From a virus (taxonomy: Duplodnaviria; Caudoviricetes): DNA of 64,000 nt. Shown piece after piece: positions 2,686 through 64,000 of this stretch. The number at the start of each line of letters is the position of its first letter. Position 1 is the first letter of the stretch. A program made the translations under genes and the position numbers. The DNA is taken from positions 6,728 to 70,727 of the IMG/VR virus record IMGVR_UViG_3300006467_000491. One strand, 5' to 3'. The notes under the pieces were generated by a model. It saw nothing but the letters and a program-made list of their open reading frames with translations. It ran no database searches and was not told the origin of the DNA.

Positions 2686-3465
2686 TCACCTCACCTTAGA
2701 AAAAAGGTCTTCCGTTCGACTCTCTGCCGCTTCGGCCGCGAGAGCCCTCTGCTTGTGCCACCAGAACCGTTCCAGCAGCCTGAATGTGGTCTGTTCCGCG
2801 TGATACCGGCCAGCACACATGATCCAATGGACTCCGGGGTATCTCACAGCCCATGCGAAGTACGTCCGGCTGATCGACTTGGCCCGTGCGCCGTGGTCAT
2901 GGCTATCGGCCAGTATGTCTGACCACGAGTGTTCACAGACAATTGCCGCGAATTCGCACATGTCGTTGAGGCGGGCAACTTCAGCTTCGAATGCGTCGCG
3001 CCGCTCTGAAAGTGACGACGCCAGATCATCGGCTTTCCGCTCGATCTGGATATCCGCCTCCATGCCGTCGATCGTGTAATCGCCCAGCCCGTCGCGCCAC
3101 AGCTGGCGGCGAACGATCGGCACGGAAACTGGCTTGTCGTCACGATCGCGAATCGTGTCGAACGCGAACGGAAACGTCTCGTTGTGGTCAATCACGATCG
3201 TGAATGGGCAAACGCCCTGTGTTTCCGCGTCAGGATCGTCGTCCGGTTTCCCCAGCGACCTGATCCAGTAGTCAGGCGGGTTGTCATCGCGCAGGCAGAT
3301 CCCGCGGTGGGCAAGATACAAGCGGAGCTTGTTTAAGGTGCTCTTGCCGCAACCGGGGATTGCCAGAATGTCGGTTGCGCGAATGAGCCGCCATCGCTCG
3401 AGGTCTTCCAGTGGGATCTGGAAGAGATTGCGCAACTTCGTGAGCGTCTTTCCTTTCAGCATCAC
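2686..3465 (-). CDS. ERCC4/XPF-family nuclease with N-terminal RNA polymerase alpha-CTD-like HhH domain
   Basis: GDYTIDGMEADIQIERKADDL fits the GDxnERKx3D motif; the N-terminal DILAIPGCGKSTLNKLRLYLAHRGICL resembles the alpha-CTD HhH. Confidence 0.8.
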   Translation of the reverse strand: MMLKGKTLTKLRNLFQIPLEDLERWRLIRATDILAIPGCGKSTLNKLRLYLAHRGICLRDDNPPDYWIRSLGKPDDDPDAETQGVCPFTIVIDHNETFPFAFDTIRDRDDKPVSVPIVRRQLWRDGLGDYTIDGMEADIQIERKADDLASSLSERRDAFEAEVARLNDMCEFAAIVCEHSWSDILADSHDHGARAKSISRTYFAWAVRYPGVHWIMCAGRYHAEQTTFRLLERFWWHKQRALAAEAAESRTEDLFSKVR

Positions 3466-4217
3466 GGTCGACTCGAACCGAGGTAGACTTTGCCAAATCC
3501 CTTCCGGCTTATCTCGTCGGCAATTTCTCGTTGAGCTGCTTCAAAAGCAACGTCGACATCGCCGTCGTAGACCTTAACCTGAATAACCCCTTCGGATGGA
3601 ACTGGAGTGACGCTGTAAGAGACAGTGAATCGTGACACTCGAATTCCCGTCGACGGATACACGCACCCTGCGACCGAAAACTCACGAGGAACGGAGTTCA
3701 TGTTTGTCACGCGATCTCGAGCTGCCTTACTGATAGCTTCGTCAGCCTCGCCAGTCGAGTAACCCTCCTCCTTGTGGGAAGCGAACTTGACTGATCCGAT
3801 CTTGTTGACATCCTCCTCGTCATATTCACACCCACGAAACGCCATCTTCATTTGACGGGCAACGGCGTTGGGTTTTCCGCTGAATGTCGTTTTTGACAGC
3901 CAGCAGGCGTGTCTGAGTGGGTAGTAGATATCTTGTTTGTCACACGCATAATCTAATGCCATACACCGCACCTCATCTCGTGACACGAGAATGGCACATG
4001 GATTTGGGTGCAGCACTTCACTGGCGAAATCACACAATGAATCCAGTGATCCAGCCTTGAAGAAAAAACCCCGGTGAGGAGTGGCTACCTCTTTCACTTC
4101 GCCCGTTGTGCGATTGAAGAAAACCACCTTGTCTGAAAACCTTTGTACTTCCTTCCATTCTTCCTTCTCGCCGAGTTCAACGAGATATTTCAACGCTTCT
4201 TTTATCATCTCAAACAC
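3462..4217 (-). CDS. Conserved phage hypothetical protein (DUF2303/YfdQ-like, tentative)
   Basis: 251-aa ORF with coupled start/stop; MIKEALKYLVELG start and pairing with a ~120-aa upstream gene recall a common phage gene pair. Confidence 0.45.
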   Translation of the reverse strand: MFEMIKEALKYLVELGEKEEWKEVQRFSDKVVFFNRTTGEVKEVATPHRGFFFKAGSLDSLCDFASEVLHPNPCAILVSRDEVRCMALDYACDKQDIYYPLRHACWLSKTTFSGKPNAVARQMKMAFRGCEYDEEDVNKIGSVKFASHKEEGYSTGEADEAISKAARDRVTNMNSVPREFSVAGCVYPSTGIRVSRFTVSYSVTPVPSEGVIQVKVYDGDVDVAFEAAQREIADEISRKGFGKVYLGSSRP

Positions 4218-4268
4218 TCCATTTCGGGTCGCACAAAATCACCAACTGAACGATTCAGTGGCTTGCTC

Positions 4269-4640
4269 TCAGTCGTCCGATTCTTCGTCGTCCTCGAACC
4301 CCAGTACCGGCTGTTCCGGGTGGTGGTCGATACTGTCGGTGTCTGTTTCGAACCCAAGTCCGCGACTCTTCGGGATGTAGCGGAGGCTCCGCTTCATCAC
4401 TTTCTTCGGCAGCGTCTTCTGAACTGAAAACTGAGTTGCCGTTGATTTGAGTGCATCGGGGTTGTCTTCATCCGGAACTGGGGTCAACTGGATCTCAATC
4501 ACCAGCTTTCTCGGCTTCTTCAGCCCCGGTCGTTGCTCGAGATCTGCTGTGATCTCTGCGAGTTCCTGATCCACTTCTGCGGCCAGTAACCCTCGAGCCA
4601 GTTTTGTCAGCGTTTCGAGTCTCAGAACTTCCATTGTCAT
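4269..4640 (-). CDS. Phage hypothetical protein (partner of the downstream gene)
   Basis: 123-aa ORF with acidic tail; KKPRKLVIEIQLTP motif. Confidence 0.55.
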   Translation of the reverse strand: MTMEVLRLETLTKLARGLLAAEVDQELAEITADLEQRPGLKKPRKLVIEIQLTPVPDEDNPDALKSTATQFSVQKTLPKKVMKRSLRYIPKSRGLGFETDTDSIDHHPEQPVLGFEDDEESDD

Positions 4641-10638: not shown

Positions 10639-10902
10639 CTACTCCCGAGAACCCGATTCCTCCGGATTGTCGGTCTCCTGATCGCAGTGCTGTTTGCCGA
10701 GTTGCTGCCCGGCATCGCCTCCTGTCGTAGCCTCTCGCGCTCGTTTCTTGACATCCAACCAAATCTCTTTCCGATGCACCGGGACTCCGCGCGGTGCCGA
10801 AATGCCGAGACGCACCTTCTTTGGCTGAATCTCGACAACCATAATCCCGATATCATCACCGATCATGATGATCTCGTCCGTCTTCCGTGAGAGAACAAGC
10901 AT
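10639..10902 (-). CDS. csrA: Carbon storage regulator CsrA/RsmA
   Basis: MLVLSRKTDEIIMIGDDIGIMVVEIQPKKVRLGISAPRGVPVHRKEIW is the canonical CsrA pattern; start refined to the MLVLSRK ATG. Confidence 0.93.
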   Translation of the reverse strand: MLVLSRKTDEIIMIGDDIGIMVVEIQPKKVRLGISAPRGVPVHRKEIWLDVKKRAREATTGGDAGQQLGKQHCDQETDNPEESGSRE

Positions 10903-52945: not shown

Positions 52946-53049
52946 GCCGGAACCTCCATTTCGCGTCAAAAGAATCACCTCACAATAACGACGCTACAAA
53001 AACCCAGCAAGACTTCCCCGGTGCTTTTCTTTGTGTTGCCACAGAATCG

Positions 53050-53800
53050 GCGAGGAGGTAGAGTGACGCGAGGTGTCCGGCCGGGAGGGAAGCGAGGGCC
53101 GGAAATTTCGTTTTTCAAAAATTTCAGAGGAGGGGATGGTGGCTAACCGCACGGCACCCGCCCGGTCGGCGGTGGGGGTCCGGGAAAAACGCTGCTGGCC
53201 TCCCCCTCCCTCGCTCCACTTCGATTCGCACCTCGCTCGCCGTTGCTCTTGGCCGAGGATCGTTGCAGCCTCGCCTCGCGCCGCTGCCTCGCTTCGAAGG
53301 CCTGTTGTCAACGACCGTTCCCTCGTTGACAAGCGATGCATTGATCCTCACCGGTCAGCGGCTGCGGCCACCTCGCCAATGCGATGGCCATCGGTCCTGG
53401 ACGAGGGTAGTCGAGGGGGGTGGCACCGGACTTTGCGGATCTGGCGACACGTCACCGTATGGTTACGTAACCGGCCGGTGACACGACAGGCCAGCACACC
53501 GCAGAAATGTAGCCTAGGCTACAATTCGCCCTCGCTCCCTCTCGGCCTACCTACTCCTCCCCTCCCACCTGCCTCGCCCAAGCCATCACCTACCCGACCT
53601 CGCTCCTCCTCGCGTCATTCCGGGCTTGCATCCGAGCTTGCTTCCGGTCTCGCTTCCGGTCTCGCGTTTGGCCTCGCATCCCGCCTCGCGTCCGACCTCA
53701 CATCCGGCCTGCCGACCTGCCGCAGCTGCTGTGTGGTGGGTGTGGTGGCTGCCCCGCAACCGCACAAAACAGGGGGATTTCGCGCTTCTCCTCGCGTCCG
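53050..53800. repeat. Dispersed CCTCGC/GCGAGG hexamer array
   Basis: 13 CCTCGC copies on + at 53209-53795; 3 inverted GCGAGG copies at 53050, 53068, 53092. Confidence 0.8.
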
Positions 53801-53844
53801 AGAGCCCGCGGCAGCGGTTCGGCATGCCTCATAGACACATAGAG

Positions 53845-53965
53845 TGTGGGTGTGGGGTTGAGGGTGGGATTGTGTGGGTGGGATTGGGAGTGGGATTGTG
53901 TGGGAGAGGGCGGGAGAGGGCGGGAGAGGGCGAGGCAGAAGGAGTGGGGCAGAGCGTGAGAGGGT
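53845..53965 (+). repeat. G-tract cluster with GGGCGGGAGA and GTGGGATT repeats
   Basis: About 16 runs of 3 or more G in ~120 nt. Confidence 0.8.
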
Positions 53966-54204
53966 GAGACGGTGAGTCGGAAGGAGTGTTGGGGAGATCG
54001 TTGGGAGGAGCGAGAACGGGAGCCCGAGCGTGCAGATCCGGCCACGAAATCAGGGGGAACGAGGGACTGAGAGAGAGAATTTGGAAGAATCTTGGAAATA
54101 TGTCCGGAATAAAGGAAACATTTCCCGGGGTTTGACGTTATATGTACGGGAGGAGTTGTTGTAGCGACAAGTATCCGGAAGTGATTGAGAGAATGGGAGT
54201 TGAA

Positions 54205-54519
54205 ACGATGAAGACAGCCGAACTGACAATGCAGGACGTTCTCGACGCCCTGCCGATCGACTTCGAGGGCGTGACATTCAGCCTGCCTGGATGGGTCGAC
54301 CTGAACGACCGTAAGACCCTGTATCGTGCCGCGATTGTGGCTCTGATGGAGGCAGCGGAAGACGACGGGTATGAGATCGTGAACGAAGCCAATGCCCTGC
54401 CTGTGCTCGCGAATGCAGTCACTGTGCAGACTGATTCCGAGAAGGTGCAGTGGGAGGGCGAGGCTGCCTGCGAGGATTGCACGGCGATGGTCGAAGACGC
54501 GATTGGAGGAAGACGATGA
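54205..54519 (+). CDS. Early-region hypothetical protein
   Basis: MKTAELTMQD..., 104 aa, first gene of the plus-strand block. Confidence 0.65.
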   Translation, partial: TMKTAELTMQDVLDALPIDFEGVTFSLPGWVDLNDRKTLYRAAIVALMEAAEDDGYEIVNEANALPVLANAVTVQTDSEKVQWEGEAACEDCTAMVEDAIGGRR

Positions 54520-54776
54520 GCACAACGCACGAAACGACCGCACAGAAGATGTTTGGGTGGGCAATCGAGCAACTCGACCAGGGGCGAACGGTCGCCCTGA
54601 CGACACACCTCAGGTCAACGCGGATCACACCGAGCAACTACAGCAAGTCCGTAGCAGCTGGTTGCCCGCTCCTGAAGCTCTCAGCCAGTGGCGAGGTACT
54701 GTTGATGCGAGAGGGCCGGAGCTACGTCAACGCCAACTACTGCAAGCTCTCAGCCTTTGTTGATGATGATGAGTGA
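54516..54776 (+). CDS. Early-region hypothetical protein
   Basis: MSTTHETTAQ..., ATGA-coupled. Confidence 0.6.
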   Translation: MSTTHETTAQKMFGWAIEQLDQGRTVALTTHLRSTRITPSNYSKSVAAGCPLLKLSASGEVLLMREGRSYVNANYCKLSAFVDDDE

Positions 54777-54862
54777 AGTGATCCGCGCCGTGCCTCTCTG
54801 CGGAGGGGCATCCGCAGGCACCTTCGCCTGGCAATTACCGACCGAGAAAGGGTGAGAACACG

Positions 54863-55570
54863 ATGAGCACAACGATTGACACGACAGCCAGAACGACCGG
54901 AGAACCGACCGTCAGCAGCGCGAGCTTTGGCCGGTTGACCGATCACAACTACGCAGAGTCTGCCTGCCGAGGAAACTGGGGATACGTCCATTTTTCTGAG
55001 TCCGGCAAGCTGCGATTGCTGCACACGATCGGATGGCTGGAAGCGATGGAAGTGAGTGATCCCGAGACTGCCTACAGCCTCGCGTCCGACCTTTGCCGCT
55101 ACCTCGACAGATTCGGCGAATACGGCGGCATGATCGACTCACCGGAAGGCAGGACGGACGTGCATGGTCAGCCCCTGCAATTCCCTCGCTACCGACTCGT
55201 TTTGAGTGATGACGGCGGACTGGGATCGTTCGGTGTGCTGTGGTACGTCGCTTTGCCGCACGAGGATTTCATGGAGGCTGCCGAGCGGATCGCGGACGAG
55301 ATCACAGCGGAGAGGCATGGCGGCAAGACGTACGCGGATCTGGATCGGGAGAATGCGGACGTGATCTGGCAAGACGCGCTGGACGCCACGCGACGGCATT
55401 TCCGGATCGACGAGGAGTTGACGGTCGATCGCGGGTACTTCCCCGACTGGGACAAGGATCGGAAGTGGTACAGCCGCGAATACATGTACTACGCATTCTC
55501 CCACAACGGAGCTCTGGTGTACCACTATGGCGATGACATCACCGGCGGCAGCTGGTCATCGCACACGTGA
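54863..55570 (+). CDS. Early-region hypothetical protein
   Basis: 235 aa, preceded by the hairpin repeat and ACACGATG. Confidence 0.7.
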   Translation: MSTTIDTTARTTGEPTVSSASFGRLTDHNYAESACRGNWGYVHFSESGKLRLLHTIGWLEAMEVSDPETAYSLASDLCRYLDRFGEYGGMIDSPEGRTDVHGQPLQFPRYRLVLSDDGGLGSFGVLWYVALPHEDFMEAAERIADEITAERHGGKTYADLDRENADVIWQDALDATRRHFRIDEELTVDRGYFPDWDKDRKWYSREYMYYAFSHNGALVYHYGDDITGGSWSSHT

Positions 55571-55657
55571 CGTGATTGACGGGGTGATTGTCCGACACGG
55601 CGCTGGAGATCGGCCAGCGTCGAATCAGGCAATTCCGCCGCTGGAGGGTGAGACACG

Positions 55658-55981
55658 ATGAAAACACACACACTTGAATCGCCGGTCGAATGCAGCAATC
55701 CGCCGAACGTGCTGCGCGATGATATCGACTGGCAGATCGTCACAGCTGGCTTCGAGCGTTTCCGCAACTACAAGGGTGGCCCCTCGATCCTCTGCGCGGT
55801 CTGCACAGCGAGATCAGGCGATGGACGACGGCACTACACGATTACCGACATCGCCACACGTATGAAGATTGCCGACTGGCTGATCCGGCAGGGCGTCCAT
55901 GATGGCGCGGACCTGCCTGATTGGATCATGAGCAATCGAGACGAATGGTACGGACCTCGCGGTCGCGGGTTTGCGGTTTGA
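55658..55981 (+). CDS. Early-region hypothetical protein
   Basis: 107 aa, preceded by the repeat and a GGAGG RBS. Confidence 0.65.
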   Translation: MKTHTLESPVECSNPPNVLRDDIDWQIVTAGFERFRNYKGGPSILCAVCTARSGDGRRHYTITDIATRMKIADWLIRQGVHDGADLPDWIMSNRDEWYGPRGRGFAV

Positions 55982-56024
55982 TTTGATGGCAATGGGCACA
56001 GCACACTTTTAGGAGCACAGCACG

Positions 56025-56258
56025 ATGACAATGGGGTGGGCGTTTCAGGACGGCAAAGACTGGACGGTAGAGTGGTCACCAGACGGCAACACGCGATGGT
56101 TGATCCATTCGTACTACCACACGCGACAGGCTGCTGTGGCAGCGCAGGCGAAGATCCTCGACACACCGGGCATGGATGGCGATCCGGCACATTGGCGAGT
56201 GCTGGGACCACCAACTGAGAGCATTGTGACTCGATTGGAAAGGCAGGCAGCACGATGA
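56025..56258 (+). CDS. Early-region hypothetical protein
   Basis: 77 aa, AGGAG RBS. Confidence 0.6.
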   Translation: MTMGWAFQDGKDWTVEWSPDGNTRWLIHSYYHTRQAAVAAQAKILDTPGMDGDPAHWRVLGPPTESIVTRLERQAAR

Positions 56259-56494
56259 GCACGATCAAGTCGCCACATGTTTACCGAGTTATTCAGGTGC
56301 CACCTGATCCGCACCAGCGGATGTTTCTTCCGGACCTGAAGGTTGGAATGCTGCTGTGGCTGAACGGAAACCGCCGTTCATCGCTTGGCAGCTACATCGG
56401 CAGGTTCAGCAGTGTGTATGAGCATCGTGGGTACTACATGCCGCGAAACGGGGAGTTCGAGATGCTGATGGAGTACGTGGAACCGGCTGTGTGA
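56255..56494 (+). CDS. Early-region hypothetical protein
   Basis: 79 aa, ATGA-coupled. Confidence 0.6.
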   Translation: MSTIKSPHVYRVIQVPPDPHQRMFLPDLKVGMLLWLNGNRRSSLGSYIGRFSSVYEHRGYYMPRNGEFEMLMEYVEPAV

Positions 56495-56586
56495 GAGCCC
56501 AGGCCTGAGAGCATCGGCCAACATTGTCGGTGCTCGATGGCCTGCACTGTCGCAGGGATTTACCGCCAAACTGAGGAGATTCAGAG

Positions 56587-56988
56587 ATGTCGAAACGAAC
56601 GATCACACTGACAAACCGACCACCTGTGTCTGTCTGTGAAGACGCCTGGCCAGTCATCGCAAGCGCTGATGACGAGTGGTTCGAGGGTGAATTCGAGTTC
56701 CAGGCAAATCGAAAAACAAGATGGTTCATCCGGGCGAGACAGCACGATGATGGCCGGGCGATCGTCTACGGGGGATATTCGCACGTGACACACTGGCGGA
56801 ACGAAAGTAACCAGCACGCCCGGCATGGTGTGACGTTGCCAGCAGGCAGTGATACGGCCGCAGTGTGCGAAGCGATCCGTGAAGTCTGCCAGTCGCTGGC
56901 CAATGACCCGCAATGCCCGGATGACGGGCGATGGGAGACACTCGCGAATCGGTGCCAGGCAGGCATGCCAGCGGAAGAGATCGACTGA
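56587..56988 (+). CDS. Early-region hypothetical protein
   Basis: 133 aa, flanked by 20-bp direct repeats. Confidence 0.65.
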   Translation: MSKRTITLTNRPPVSVCEDAWPVIASADDEWFEGEFEFQANRKTRWFIRARQHDDGRAIVYGGYSHVTHWRNESNQHARHGVTLPAGSDTAAVCEAIREVCQSLANDPQCPDDGRWETLANRCQAGMPAEEID

Positions 56989-57086
56989 ACGGCTGAACGG
57001 CTGAATGATCCGACACAGCGCGGGCGACTTTCCCGCGCTGACTCGGGCAATTCCGCCCATTACCGCCAAACTGAGGAGAGCACACG

Positions 57087-57698
57087 ATGAGCACGATGAG
57101 CACGACGACATGCAACACTGAGCACGATATCCCCGACGGATGGTTCGCAGCTGGAACCGCCGTCCCAAACAGCACGGAATACTGGATCAACCCGTTTTCC
57201 GGCCTGATTGTGTGTGGACCTGAAGCGCCACCAATTCGCGATATCGAGGTCGCACAGATCCCGACGGAGCCACGGTTGCTGGTCGTTCCCGAGGATCAGA
57301 CCGAACCGACCCGCGACATCGCGACCGAACTGGCACACTGCACCGGCAGCGACACCACCTACCGACACAGTTTTATGCGATGGTTTGAGTACACAGAAGG
57401 TGCCCGAACACTCGCCGAGATGGCAGGCGCGTACTGGCTCATCGACGTTGTCGCAAGCCACCAGATCAAACCACGAGTTCGCAGAGAGCAGTTCCAGCTC
57501 TGGTCGATCCGTAAACTTCCGCCCACCGCGAAGAATGCCGCCGTCGTCGAATGCAGGACCGACTCCAACCGCCCTGTGTTGTGCAAGCAATTCATCCCGT
57601 ACACCGACTTCCCATTTGCAGCACTAGGCGACACATTCGAGTGGTACGTCTGCCGCGCGGAACGAGGCCCGCGAATGCTGCTGAAATCGGAGTATTGA
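57087..57698 (+). CDS. DUF6876-like protein
   Basis: LAHCTGSDTTYRH...YTEGARTLAEMAGAYWLIDVVASHQ...QFIPYTDFP. Confidence 0.65.
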   Translation: MSTMSTTTCNTEHDIPDGWFAAGTAVPNSTEYWINPFSGLIVCGPEAPPIRDIEVAQIPTEPRLLVVPEDQTEPTRDIATELAHCTGSDTTYRHSFMRWFEYTEGARTLAEMAGAYWLIDVVASHQIKPRVRREQFQLWSIRKLPPTAKNAAVVECRTDSNRPVLCKQFIPYTDFPFAALGDTFEWYVCRAERGPRMLLKSEY

Positions 57699-57701
57699 GC
57701 C

Positions 57702-58004
57702 ATGACCATGCGACAAATCACACTCGCAGAATACGAAGCGATTCACCCGGATTTTCGCGGCATCTGGACGACAGAGCGCGACGACTGGCCTGGTTGGCCG
57801 GAGATCCGGCACCAATACATCGGCAAGCGAACGATGATGGCCGGAGACGGCAAATGCACGCTGCTGGTGGAGGGGCTCGGGTTCGAAGTAATCGAGCCTG
57901 AGAAATACCCGCAAGGTTCCGCCGCTTGTCCGGCCTGCGGTTCCGTCTGGCTTGATAGCGACCACGCTGCGAGCTGCTGCCCGGAATCCCGATACGCCGA
58001 ATGA
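57702..58004 (+). CDS. Early-region hypothetical protein with C-terminal CxxC
   Basis: 100 aa; its TGA is part of the hairpin repeat. Confidence 0.6.
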   Translation: MTMRQITLAEYEAIHPDFRGIWTTERDDWPGWPEIRHQYIGKRTMMAGDGKCTLLVEGLGFEVIEPEKYPQGSAACPACGSVWLDSDHAASCCPESRYAE

Positions 58005-58078
58005 TCCGATACGGCGCTGGAGATCGGCCAGCGTCGACTCGGGCAATTCTACCCATCACAGACAAAGGAGAGCACACG

Positions 58079-58420
58079 ATGAAGACGGCCGCAGACATCT
58101 ACCAACAGATCGAGAAAGAACGACAGATCGAGAAAGCTGTTGACGTTGCCGAGAAATGGCTGGAGGAATCCGGATTCGATCAACCGGAGTTTGATGGATC
58201 ATTGTGGAGCGGTATTTTTTGGGAGGCAAGAGTCACGATCACAGGGATTCACGTGAACTGGGACATCAAGGACAACAAAGGTGAATGGATTTCCGGTAAC
58301 GATTCCGGGGTGAATCAAGATTCCTATAGCCTCGACGACAAAGACGGTGTTGAGCTGTTGTTTGCTTGGGTCTGCCGATCAGCATGGCTGACTGAGTCAG
58401 AACGTCCGGCGCAACCGTGA
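58079..58420 (+). CDS. Early-region hypothetical protein
   Basis: Start refined to MKTAADIY (AAGGAG RBS). Confidence 0.6.
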   Translation: MKTAADIYQQIEKERQIEKAVDVAEKWLEESGFDQPEFDGSLWSGIFWEARVTITGIHVNWDIKDNKGEWISGNDSGVNQDSYSLDDKDGVELLFAWVCRSAWLTESERPAQP

Positions 58421-58504
58421 ATGTGGCTGCCGGAATGATCCGATACAGCGCAGGAGATTGGCCTGTGCTGACTCGGGCAATTCCGCCTGATGGAGTACGG
58501 CACG

Positions 58505-59044
58505 ATGCGATTCACAGCACTGAAAGAAATTATCCGGCTCTTTGCTCACAATCACGATTTCGCGCCGTCGGACGCGACTGAAGCACTGAGCGAACTCGAC
58601 CAGTTAGCGACATGGTTGCAGCGAATCACGCCGCCGCACATCAAGCAGGAGGAACTGACGGGCGAATCAGAGCCCACACCGGAAACCGTTAATCTCGCAG
58701 CCGATGACCTCATTGACCGGATTGATGCCCTGATTGGCGTGTACTCCCTGCCGGTGTTTGTAGCAGCATTCTGCGAATACCTTGAAGAACACGATGGAGA
58801 CGAAACCTTCAATTCGTGGGAGCCGCAGATTCAGCGACTCTACGAAAACCTGAACATGAACATCAGCACATTTGTTCGAGCGCATAAAGCAATCGCTAAA
58901 AGCGGGGAGTTCAAACCAAGCTGGTCAACCGACCCGTTTTTCAAGTATGACGAATGGCTGCTGGAGATCGTGAAAGGATCTACAAGGCTGGGGTATGACG
59001 AATGGGTATGTGCCCAACCTGAGAACACTCCCGCGCCGGAATAA
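58505..59044 (+). CDS. Early-region hypothetical protein
   Basis: Start MRFTAL; C-terminal YDEWLLEIVKGSTRLGYDEWV motif; its TAA is part of the hairpin repeat. Confidence 0.6.
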   Translation: MRFTALKEIIRLFAHNHDFAPSDATEALSELDQLATWLQRITPPHIKQEELTGESEPTPETVNLAADDLIDRIDALIGVYSLPVFVAAFCEYLEEHDGDETFNSWEPQIQRLYENLNMNISTFVRAHKAIAKSGEFKPSWSTDPFFKYDEWLLEIVKGSTRLGYDEWVCAQPENTPAPE

Positions 59045-59105
59045 TCCGATCCGTGCCTCAGTGCGCTGGGGCATCATCGGGCAATTCCGCCTGGAGGAGT
59101 ACAGC

Positions 59106-59360
59106 ATGATCAGCAAACCAGCATATGTAGGCGATGGCGTATACATCCAGCATCGCCCAAACGGAGACGTAACACTGACGACCGGCTGCCACCTGCCACA
59201 AACACCGGCCGAGGCACACGTCGGTCAACCGGGCAACACGATCGTACTGGAGCCAGAAGTCCTGATCGGTGCGATGAACTGGCTGATAATGAGTGATCCG
59301 ACAGCACGATCGTGGTTCGAGGCAATGAGGAATCGAGCAAGATGGAGTGAAGACGCATGA
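59106..59360 (+). CDS. Early-region hypothetical protein
   Basis: YVGDGVYI...IVLEPEV motif; GGAGGAG RBS. Confidence 0.6.
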   Translation: MISKPAYVGDGVYIQHRPNGDVTLTTGCHLPQTPAEAHVGQPGNTIVLEPEVLIGAMNWLIMSDPTARSWFEAMRNRARWSEDA

Positions 59361-59452
59361 ACGAACCACTCATTATCGGCATCTGCATCCTGGCCGGCTT
59401 GATTGCCGGCGTGATTGTCGGTGATCGCACAATCGGGCGGCGAGACCGCTGA
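59357..59452 (+). CDS. 31-aa single-TM peptide
   Basis: MNEPLIIGICILAGLIAGVIVGDRTIGRRDR; ATGA-coupled. Confidence 0.45.
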   Translation: MNEPLIIGICILAGLIAGVIVGDRTIGRRDR

Positions 59453-59472
59453 TCACGTTAAGGAGAGCACAC

Positions 59473-59730
59473 GTGACACACAAAAAACCGCCAACCAACG
59501 ACAGTATTTGCCGAGACTGCGGCTGCCAGATAAGTACGGACGAAGGAAAGAATTTCGGGCACTGCGGTTTCTGCCATATCGTCCTCATGCACCGCCAGCA
59601 GGGGTTTATCGAACTCGGCAGCAATGAGGTGTACGTCATCGACGATCACGCAGCTGACCAGCGGACCCGCCGCGCTGAATCATCTGAGATCCAGTACCAC
59701 GGCGGTCAGTTCAATAGAGGAGAATGGTAA
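59473..59730 (+). CDS. Small zinc-finger protein
   Basis: CRDC...CGFC; AAGGAG RBS. Confidence 0.55.
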   Translation: MTHKKPPTNDSICRDCGCQISTDEGKNFGHCGFCHIVLMHRQQGFIELGSNEVYVIDDHAADQRTRRAESSEIQYHGGQFNRGEW

Positions 59731-59732
59731 CA

Positions 59733-59987
59733 ATGGCCAACATCTTCACAGCCGCAGAAGTGGCGAGGATCTGCAACGTCGCCCCGCGAACCGTCAACAA
59801 GTGGTTCGACGCCGGGAGACTGCGGGGATACCGGATTCCGGGAACAATGGACCGCAGGATTCCCTTTGCGGACCTGCTGGCGTTCCTCACCGAACACGGG
59901 TTTCCACGCGAAGACTTAGCATTCCGCGCTGGACGCACCGAAGTCAGCGAACTCGACAACGAAAGTGAGGCCGACGGTGACACCTGA
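59733..59987 (+). CDS. Excisionase-like (HTH_17/MerR-like) DNA-binding protein
   Basis: FTAAEVARICNVAPRTVNKWFDAGRLRGYRIPGTMDRRIP. Confidence 0.85.
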   Translation: MANIFTAAEVARICNVAPRTVNKWFDAGRLRGYRIPGTMDRRIPFADLLAFLTEHGFPREDLAFRAGRTEVSELDNESEADGDT

Positions 59988-60168
59988 GCGAGCCACCGAG
60001 ATTATCCAACAAGCACGAGAGCGAGCAGGTCACGGCCCGTGGTCTGACCAGCTGCAACACGTGATGACGCTGGACGAACGGCGAGAGTTGCTGGCAGTCT
60101 GGAAAACGATGCCCGGCCACACCGCGTTCGTGGATGTCCTCAACCGCGTAGCAACTGGAGGAGATTGA
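59965..60168 (+). CDS. Hypothetical protein
   Basis: ~63-67 aa; PWSDQLQHVMT...VW motif. Confidence 0.5.
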   Translation: MRPTVTPERATEIIQQARERAGHGPWSDQLQHVMTLDERRELLAVWKTMPGHTAFVDVLNRVATGGD

Positions 60169-60171
60169 CAC

Positions 60172-60387
60172 ATGCACGCACGAAACCAACCTCGACGGTT
60201 CGCTGTGCTCGTCTGCCGCACGGTCAAATCCTACGCCACGATCGACGTGGAGGGCGTGACCAGCTAGCAGGAAGCACGACGAATCGCACTGGAGATCGCC
60301 AGAGCTGAGGACGACGGGGATCGCAATTACACAGAGACCGCTCCACCAGCGTACACCGTCAGGAGCATAGCCAAGGAAATCACCTGA
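60172..60387 (+). pseudogene. 71-codon ORF interrupted by an in-frame TAG at codon 32
   Basis: MHARN...TIDVEGVTS*QEARRIALEIARAE...KEIT; GGAGGAG RBS; terminal TGA abuts the next ATG. Confidence 0.6.
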
Positions 60388-60389
60388 CC

Positions 60390-60644
60390 ATGACTGCGGA
60401 AAAGACCCTGACCGTCATCGAGGCGGCAATCGAACTGGACGTTGACACGTCGCGAATCCAGAAGCTGTGCAGACAGGGGCGACTCGGTTACACGCACGGG
60501 AAACACGGTCGCGCGTGGATCATCACTGCGGAGGAGGTAGCGAAGTACAAGGAGATCGGCCCGCTGAAGCCTCCCGGCCGACCGCCGAAGAAGAAACTGG
60601 CGAAGATCCGACTGGACGGTACACCGGTTTACGAGACCGACTGA
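60390..60644 (+). CDS. Second HTH_17-like DNA-binding protein with AT-hook-like PGRPPK
   Basis: LTVIEAAIELDVDTSRIQKLCRQGRL...WII. Confidence 0.8.
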   Translation: MTAEKTLTVIEAAIELDVDTSRIQKLCRQGRLGYTHGKHGRAWIITAEEVAKYKEIGPLKPPGRPPKKKLAKIRLDGTPVYETD

Positions 60645-60913
60645 ATCATCGCTGCCTTTTGCTCCCGCAGTTTCCCGATAGCGGCATTCATCTCATTGAT
60701 GACTTTTTGAAAGTCGTCAAAAGATGGTGCCGCTTTTTCCATCGTCGGCTCGCCAGCTTGGCCCTGCTGGCACATAGCAAGCGCCTGCATTGCTGCCTGC
60801 ATCTGGCCAACCAAGCCAGCAATCCTCCAGACGATCGTATCGTACTCGTCCGATGCTGCGTCCAAGAGCCCCGAGATCTGGTCGACGTTCTGCTGTTCCA
60901 TTTCGCAGGCCAT
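60629..60913 (-). CDS. Helical-hairpin/coiled-coil protein
   Basis: Start MACEME at 60913 with GGAG RBS. Confidence 0.55.
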   Translation of the reverse strand: MACEMEQQNVDQISGLLDAASDEYDTIVWRIAGLVGQMQAAMQALAMCQQGQAGEPTMEKAAPSFDDFQKVINEMNAAIGKLREQKAAMIQSVS

Positions 60914-63864: not shown

Positions 63865-64000
63865 GTTATAATACACACTAAATCGAAAGGTTCCTCAAAA
63901 CAGCCGACGGCAGGTAACAATCGCATCCAGCGGAGGCCGGTCGACGCGAAAAAAACGTGGGCAATCGCACATCCGGCCCGCGCTGATGCAAAGCGTTATC

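Follow-up and report, generated by a model that had tools for sequence, protein, structure and literature searches.

The stretch of DNA analysed here, referred to as the window, comprises 64,000 nucleotides of a Caudoviricetes virus (bases 6728–70727 of the 70,727-bp IMG/VR record IMGVR_UViG_3300006467_000491), and the element under study is a hairpin of about 50 nt that recurs between the small genes of one operon on its + strand. This operon (g1–g18), delimited from the map of open reading frames (ORFs) and their gaps, is divergent from the terminase and structural genes of the - strand. Within it, family matches were obtained only for g8 (57087–57698, DUF6876) and for two HTH_17 proteins (g15 and g18), and no relatives of g3 were found among viral contigs; a PAS protein is encoded downstream of the array. 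Most genes of the window lie on the - strand, including those for a primase, a RecD-type helicase, the tail proteins, the large terminase and a giant protein of 4,471 aa with SNF2 helicase domains (13.4-kb gene). The terminase shares at most 31% identity with that of any cultured phage, and the array DNA has no blastn match among GenBank phages. As judged by these comparisons, the phage represents a lineage without close cultured relatives.

The strict pattern TCCGA-N(20-34)-TCRGGCAATTC has five matches in the window (55591, 57009, 58005, 58439 and 59045), all on the + strand, where shuffled sequences are expected to give 0.01, and the whole 70,727-bp genome contains no further match. The five copies proposed in the initial annotation are thus confirmed in position, and each shows the three-tier fold that had been described. 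Two divergent hairpins had also been proposed, near 54779 and 56500. The former (hairpin F) is a true member of the family: it has the upper-stem type and UGCG tetraloop of the copy at 59039, two basal pairs are swapped compensatorily (GAAG/CUUC versus GAAU/AUUC), and it gives a 19-bit R1 match in the identical contig L145. The latter (hairpin G) shares the design, but its sequence is unrelated to that of the other copies; it folds with -40 kcal/mol (z -4.3) and is 87–91% conserved in the related contigs L142 and L143. An Rfam search returned no match at the gathering score in the window, the sole match at E < 1 within 54000–60700 is unrelated, and no ribozyme family was found.

The positions of the hairpins follow the gene junctions closely (Table 1). 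Between 54776 and 59106, all seven intergenic gaps of at least 60 nt hold a hairpin, whereas no hairpin is present in the single 43-nt gap or between genes that overlap or abut, and hairpins never lie inside genes. Gene pairs without an intervening hairpin overlap (ATGA). In every copy, the next ATG stands 18–33 nt past the hairpin and is preceded by a Shine-Dalgarno sequence (SD), which agrees with the repeating unit of hairpin, ribosome-binding site (RBS), ORF and stop suggested originally for these putatively early genes.

Table 1. Hairpins and associated features of the operon, in window coordinates
Feature	Positions	Strand	Location	Characteristics
Operon g1–g18	54208–60644	+		About 18 small, mostly orphan genes; holds the hairpins
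Hairpin F	54775–54825	+	Between g2 and g3	Type II, UGCG tetraloop, basal stem GAAG/CUUC; assigned by fold; orthologous to L142 4617 and L156 8986
Hairpin E	55586–55635	+	Between g3 and g4	Type I; altered 5' arm closes first internal loop
Hairpin G	56493–56551	+	Between g6 and g7	Three-tier design, unrelated sequence; about 29 helical steps
Leader module, first copy	56560–56579	+		20 nt, TTACCGCCAAACTGAGGAGA, includes SD; exact direct repeat of 57060–57079
Hairpin A	57003–57053	+	Between g7 and g8	Type I, loop CGACUUU
Leader module, second copy	57060–57079	+		20 nt, exact direct repeat; bounds the g7 + hairpin A cassette
Hairpin B	57999–58049	+		Type I, loop AGAUCGG; g9 stop TGA 58002–58004 inside hairpin as its U-R-R triplet
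Hairpin C	58433–58483	+	Between g10 and g11	Type I, loop AGAUUGG
Hairpin D	59039–59087	+		Type II, UGCG tetraloop; g11 stop TAA 59042–59044 inside hairpin

Fold of the hairpin and its conservation in other phages

The strict copies fold as stems of 4, 5 and 9 bp that are separated by two 2x2 internal loops and closed by a 7-nt apical loop, except for the copy at 59039, which has stems of 4, 6 and 9 bp and the UGCG tetraloop. Their fold energies range from -27 to -34 kcal/mol (z -3.0 to -5.5). From base to tip, a 4-bp GAAU/AUUC base is followed by a 2x2 loop, a middle stem of 5–6 bp with a U-G pair, a small loop and an upper stem of 9 bp that is free in sequence and capped by an AGAYYGG loop (type I) or by a tetraloop of the UNCG class (type II). 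The resulting rod measures 4+2+5+2+9 = 22 helical steps, or about two turns (22–23 steps in type II). On the 3' side, a near-invariant GGCAAUUCCGCC leads to the SD and AUG of the next gene. In the E-type copies, the 5' arm is the changed arm, and it is altered to pair with GGCAAUUCCGCC. The AGAYYGG loop is found in 10 of 11 type I copies.

Relatives were traced by exact-protein look-ups from homologues of g8 and of the PAS protein. Two contigs (L145 and L146) are identical to the window, four contigs of about 70 kb (L142, L143, L144 and L157) form a syntenic lineage, and L156 represents a third lineage; a fourth, L190, was obtained from a refined pattern scan of IMG/VR and carries two hairpin copies. 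A covariance model built from the five window copies identifies five sense-strand copies in L142 and five in L156. In L154, a more distant fragment, the hairpins are alike in design and position and different in sequence; a helix of 21–29 steps with internal loops is the constant across the array hairpins, those of L154 included. The motif is present in at least four uncultured phage lineages. The third lineage also contains a seemingly decayed type I hairpin in a 180-nt spacer (L156 6478–6658, - strand), with an intact 5' arm GATGATCCGACACAGC and a degenerate 3' arm.

Wider scans gave no further carriers. A terminase-based search yielded 17 loci at 63–75% identity, none of which has the hairpin; those loci carry other repeated leaders. 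For instance, in L134, whose terminase is 63% identical, the leader GGAGACTTTCCACTATG stands before at least four small genes (2900–4500, - strand), and a variable hairpin rich in G+C lies ahead of each of these leaders. No match was obtained in strict pattern scans of viral and metagenome contigs, and a loose scan of viral contigs gave about 118 single matches, which is chance level. In a scan of 185,579 species genomes, 32 single matches were obtained at 17–31 bits, the score expected from forced matches, and these provide no clue to the host.

The covariation of the upper stem, first noticed among the window copies, holds with the homologues from other phages. Among the type II copies of three lineages, 8 of 19 pairs are changed on both sides and 95.4% of the cells are paired; the corresponding values for type I are 4 of 18 pairs and 96.3%, which brings the compensatory changes to 12 of 37 base pairs for the two types combined. 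As a control, the 3' partners were slid by 1–3 columns, and in these registers only 30–54% of the cells are paired, with 0–2 double changes. The U11-G49 wobble at the foot of the middle stem occurs in 16 of 17 copies and several further G-U pairs are frequent; on the complementary strand, such pairs would be C-A mismatches. The covariance model scores the + strand at 59–85 bits versus 15–46 bits for the - strand, and the reverse strand folds less well, in line with the single-strand, RNA-type selection that the initial annotation had suspected. We read the hairpin as a selected single-strand fold, with mRNA as its most likely carrier and also its natural one, because the genes lie on the same strand as the fold.

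A further property is a stop codon built into the hairpin. Columns 8–10 read UGA, UAA or UAG in most copies, which places a U-R-R triplet at the first internal loop. In 10 of 16 copies, including the two in the window for which it had been reported (hairpins B and D), this triplet is itself the stop codon of the upstream ORF; in the other six, the stop lies 3–25 nt upstream or in another frame. The g9 protein has 100 aa in the window versus 65 aa in L142, and in either case its reading frame closes at the stop that the hairpin provides. Immediately before hairpin A lies a tandem duplication, CGGCTGAA x2 (56989–57004), which together with the TGA of hairpin A itself provides stop codons in all three frames.

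Probable cassette exchange and neighbouring features

In the comparison of the window with L142, identity is 86–94% for the hairpins and about 70–87% for the shared genes, while several genes are not shared. Hairpin B is 94% identical to L142 6678–6728, with a flanking gene at 72%, and hairpin D is orthologous to L142 7848 (86% over 71 nt). There is no L142 counterpart of g2, g4, g7 with hairpin A, g10 with hairpin C, g12 or g13, and in L142 the place of g10 and hairpin C is taken by an unrelated gene of 106 aa, which is accompanied by a type II hairpin. L143 is without g6, and the g1 homologue of L156 lies downstream of the g3 homologue instead of upstream as in the window. Gene order and content are not invariant in these relatives (L142, L143 and L156), consistent with the shuffled array proposed at the outset.

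Two of these differences have visible borders. The unit of g7 and hairpin A is bounded by the exact 20-nt leader repeat (56560 and 57060), and L142, which has neither g7 nor hairpin A, retains a single copy of the leader at that junction. The indel of g4 is bounded by a shared CACGATGA start context. The array genes are not paralogous to one another and the repeats were therefore not spread by gene duplication, so that gene paralogy is ruled out as their origin.

The hairpins themselves are mosaic. The lower stem of hairpin E is identical at 25 of 26 positions to its positional orthologue in L142, whereas its upper stem is identical (25/25) to copy B of its own genome. Likewise, the L142 copy of hairpin D matches window D in the lower stem (26/27) and the L142 copy of F in the upper stem (21/22). 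The upper stem tracks the genome and the lower stem tracks the position, a pattern characteristic of gene conversion over short tracts among the copies within one genome. On these sequence comparisons, the description of the units as cassettes is justified as a pattern. In L142 (7131–7853) and L156 (4758–5612), proteins of 240–284 aa are chimeric with respect to window g8 and g11, with one segment like the g8 N-terminus (39–50% identity) and the rest like g11 (26–33%), which suggests that shuffling also occurs inside genes.

Several features lie outside the array. A 1.1-kb non-coding region separates the divergent operons (53000–54150); it contains C-rich and then G-rich repeat tracts (CCTCGC and GGGAGAGGGCGG arrays) and an AT-rich patch just before g1, and part of it (53104–53248) is conserved at 82% in L142. 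This region is a candidate origin or regulatory region. Near the distal end of the operon, g17 (60172–60387, +) has an in-frame TAG at 60265–60267, after codon 31; the 39 codons past it stay open, and the full length aligns with intact 70-aa homologues of L142 and L156, so that the TAG may be either a recent nonsense mutation or a site of read-through. The ends of the genome overlap by exactly 127 bp (window 63874–64000 and genome 1–127), which looks like the assembler k-mer overlap of a circular contig and not like a physical terminal repeat.

Possible functions of the repeated hairpin

We tentatively favour, with slightly less than even confidence, an interpretation in which the hairpin spans two helical turns and serves, between cistrons, as a signal for RNase III-type processing or for stabilisation of the mRNA, and in which its DNA doubles as a homology patch for cassette exchange, as do the promoter early stem-loops (PeSLs) of T4. 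A processing or stabilising signal is favoured because the loop-broken helix of 21–29 steps matches the published description of RNase III substrates and the layout of the T7 early region. Substrates of E. coli RNase III typically span two helical turns, for which coaxially stacked short helices suffice, and internal loops limit the enzyme to a single-strand cut that leaves protective 3' hairpins (PMC1540722). The hairpin of the array forms a (quasi-)continuous helix of two turns (22 steps), the length described for substrates of the E. coli enzyme. Its 2x2 (or 2x1) internal loop lies 9 bp below the apical loop, and its location is intercistronic, ahead of an RBS. No RNase III gene was found in the phage genome.

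Under this interpretation, the operon would be transcribed into one long polycistronic mRNA, and in the spacers between its cistrons the repeat would act in cis as a structured RNA. As at the T7 early sites, the two-turn helix would be bound by host RNase III or by a different factor specific for double strands, with the internal loops confining the cut to a single strand. Cleavage would leave the message upstream with a protective hairpin at its 3' end and the one downstream with a uniform leader at its start, and it would divide the operon into mono- to tri-cistronic units whose stabilities are independent. For any ORF joined upstream, a ready-made stop would be provided by the U-R-R triplet at the first internal loop. 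At the DNA level, the 50–70 bp recurring at many gene junctions may act as homology patches, between which recombination and gene conversion would insert, delete, replace and reorder the flanked ORFan cassettes, like PeSLs in T4-type phages.

Several observations weigh against this interpretation. Recognition by RNase III alone explains neither the conserved loop nor the conserved 3' motif nor the internal stop, and rival explanations that involve a translational hand-over or a dedicated RNA-binding protein therefore stay alive. RNase III needs no loop sequence, and the AGAYYGG loop is nevertheless kept across four lineages, even where the upper stem differs entirely, which suggests an additional reader of the loop. 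Similarly, the 3' arm and flank GGCAAUUCCGCC are conserved beyond the need for pairing. Ribosomes that terminate at a stop within the hairpin have to melt it, and a translational role accounts for this arrangement no less well. Single-stranded DNA of the sense strand could adopt a similar fold, accessory regions of phages often vary in gene content whether or not they have special joints, and the hairpin was found in only four lineages, so that few independent events are sampled.

A more far-reaching proposal is that, in this phage group, one structured element with a built-in stop has two roles: in RNA it would punctuate the transcript, and in DNA it would be the joint where homologous recombination and gene conversion capture, swap and reorder ORFan cassettes, so that it would function like the attC site of integrons without needing an integrase. 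We regard this as unlikely, though worth serious consideration; were it true, any ORF joined to the 5' arm would be terminated automatically, and the next ORF would automatically receive a leader and an SD. The initial annotation had assigned the shuffling to a RecT-like protein, which finds no support, as RecT (PF03837) is not detectable in the genome. No other recombinase was found in the replication module either, which encodes only a primase, a RecD-like helicase, an ERCC4-type nuclease, weak PD-(D/E)XK and weak GIY-YIG matches and a PolB-type exonuclease.

Among the explanations that compete with processing, translational coupling is improbable but carries the most weight. The upstream ORF would terminate in or just before the base of the hairpin, and the refolded hairpin would bring the stop beside the SD, by which ribosomes are passed on or, conversely, coupling is insulated. 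The 10 of 16 copies with a stop at the U-R-R triplet fit such a hand-over, as do the use of all three stop codons there, the start of the SD 2–20 nt after the conserved 3' flank, and the classical coupling by overlap (ATGA) of the gene pairs that lack a hairpin. However, the six copies with a stop upstream or in another frame do not fit, the SD is never sequestered by the hairpin, and the constant two-turn length is left unexplained. We also know of no bacterial precedent for ribosome shunting across such a hairpin.

The conservation beyond pairing, which comprises the invariant U-G, the CA of the 3' internal loop, the GGCAAUUCCGCC motif and the AGAYYGG kept over the unrelated upper stems of L190, would be expected of an operator RNA bound by a trans-acting phage or host protein, for example a phage CsrA homologue that times or shuts off the operon. 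Such a protein could bind the lower stem, the internal loops and the 3' flank, or AGAYYGG. The phage does encode a full-length CsrA/RsmA-type domain (78–79 bits, 10747–10902, -), most type I copies have GGAGA at the apex, and a GGAG SD lies in every unit within the two-site range of CsrA. Still, we consider this explanation rather improbable: half of the copies (type II) have the UGCG loop and no GGA, the loops of L190 and copy A have none either, and the GG of the GGA in type I copies is paired in the stem, where a CsrA site would have the GGA exposed. The best-conserved parts are without GGA, and no other RNA-binding protein was identified. The csrA-type gene sits between the replication genes and the 13.4-kb giant gene, and unrelated phage contigs that carry DUF6876 (L147, L148 and L151) also encode CsrA.

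No sigma-70 hexamers or promoter-like site was found at any hairpin, and the 18–33 nt up to the ATG are too short for one, which makes a promoter within the unit unlikely. It is quite doubtful that the hairpins are attenuators without a U-tract that give a gradient of expression, perhaps overridden by an antiterminator such as the HTH_17 (AlpA/Xis-type) proteins g15 and g18. Stable hairpins directly after stop codons could act in this way, the stem-loops of PeSLs do act as terminators (PMC2839356), and HTH_17 proteins are conserved beside the array in all lineages; however, these proteins are encoded within the operon itself, at its distal end. No U-tract follows any copy and none is called by a terminator scan, the 3' flank being CCGCC in nearly all copies, and an A-U-rich, loop-interrupted stem base is the opposite of what intrinsic terminators have. 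An intrinsic terminator is unlikely.

The conserved arms with a variable but paired centre, the presence of one element per cassette, and the gain, loss and reordering of cassettes between lineages recall an attC-type site that is folded as single-stranded DNA and used by a site-specific recombinase. We judge such a site to be highly unlikely here. A tyrosine integrase (PF00589) was not found in the complete genome; the arms, GAAUGAUCCGA and UCGGGCAAUUC, contain no R'/R'' core motifs (RYYYAAC / GTTRRRY), and the loops are symmetric, without asymmetric extrahelical bases. Of the two strands, the sense strand folds better, and the junctions are scattered: they occur at the 20-nt leader repeat, at the CACGATGA start context and at the hairpin's 5' edge, with no single fixed crossover point, while the mosaic of upper and lower stems fits homologous gene conversion. 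The earlier description of an integron-like array without an integrase thus stands only as an analogy, because the features that define attC are missing.

A selfish or neutral miniature repeat, of the miniature inverted-repeat transposable element (MITE) or repetitive extragenic palindrome (REP) kind, that spread through the spacers without a function for the phage is very improbable: although the element is multi-copy, confined to one hyperplastic region and homogenised within each genome, its strict orientation, strict intercistronic placement and fixed SD spacing, its compensatory evolution and its 86–94% conservation across lineages whose genes have diverged to about 70% argue otherwise, and no terminal inverted repeats, target duplications or transposase were found. 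An N4-type hairpin promoter for a virion RNA polymerase was rejected, as the 4,471-aa protein has SNF2 helicase domains and the template strand folds worse; a T7-type RNA polymerase was not found in the genome, which is a weak negative because the PF00940 control matched in no genome. A trans-acting RNA that targets the conserved 3' motif was likewise rejected, since antisense occurrences of GGCAATTC are at chance level.

Comparison with known systems

The early RNase III sites of T7 and T3 (R0.3, R0.5, R1, R1.1 and R1.3) are likewise several related hairpins of about 50–60 nt between the cistrons of one early-type operon. They also span about two helical turns with internal loops, stand before the RBS of the next gene, and share sequence while keeping their pairing by compensatory change. 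In contrast, there is no sequence similarity and the phages are unrelated, the hairpins described here have two symmetric 2x2 loops instead of one asymmetric loop as well as a built-in stop and a conserved apical loop, and their cleavage is only predicted.

PeSLs of T4-type phages are conserved intergenic modules that end in an SD and flank ORFans in a hyperplastic region, and relatives differ by indels, by replacements and by having two modules that flank a gene versus one module, with no dedicated recombinase (PMC2839356, PMC4122927). The array shows the same ORFan indels and replacements with junctions in the modules. A PeSL combines a strong sigma-70-type promoter with a terminator stem-loop (PMC2839356, PMC4122927), whereas the hairpin of the array is a long, irregular, covarying helix without a U-tract, with neither a detectable promoter nor room for one between hairpin and ATG. 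The T4 comparison drawn in the initial annotation consequently fits the shuffling behaviour, but not the composition of the units, which have no recognisable promoter and place the hairpin too near the start codon.

In Cluster K mycobacteriophages, start-associated sequences (SAS) and their extended form (ESAS) resemble the array in anatomy: imperfect inverted repeats, whose arms measure about 17 bp and enclose a short variable spacer, immediately precede a conserved start-associated sequence and the start codon, at a subset of genes and in a single orientation (PMC3203893). ESAS arms have a fixed consensus, in contrast to the free upper stem found here, and the sequences, hosts and phage group are different; no cassette shuffling has been reported for ESAS sites (PMC3203893).

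Integron attC sites, including clusters of attC sites lacking integron-integrases (CALIN), resemble the array in that each cassette has one structured imperfect palindrome with conserved outer arms and a centre that varies but stays paired, and in that the ORFs of the arrays are promoterless. The array differs in that it has no IntI, no R or L boxes and no extrahelical bases, the sense strand and not the bottom strand folds best, and the junctions do not fall at one fixed position. REP elements, bacterial interspersed mosaic elements (BIME) and the Neisseria Correia repeats (neisserial miniature insertion sequences, NEMIS) are repeated intercistronic palindromes that fold in mRNA and alter its stability, and Correia hairpins are RNase III substrates. 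These are chromosome-wide repeats of hosts, whereas the phage element is confined to one operon and has only the chance-level single matches in species genomes described above.

In the literature, we found no description of this motif, its built-in stop or the chimeric gene-conversion pattern. The hairpin is well supported as a structured RNA and has no entry in Rfam. It joins two questions that are usually studied apart, namely the RNA-level punctuation of long accessory operons and the plasticity of ORFan regions without dedicated recombinases, and the chimeric hairpins, the repeat-bounded indel and the built-in stop give testable predictions for both. While it is a full member of none of the classes compared, the hairpin most resembles the T7 RNase III sites in its proposed action, the PeSLs of T4 in its evolutionary behaviour, and ESAS/SAS in its anatomy.

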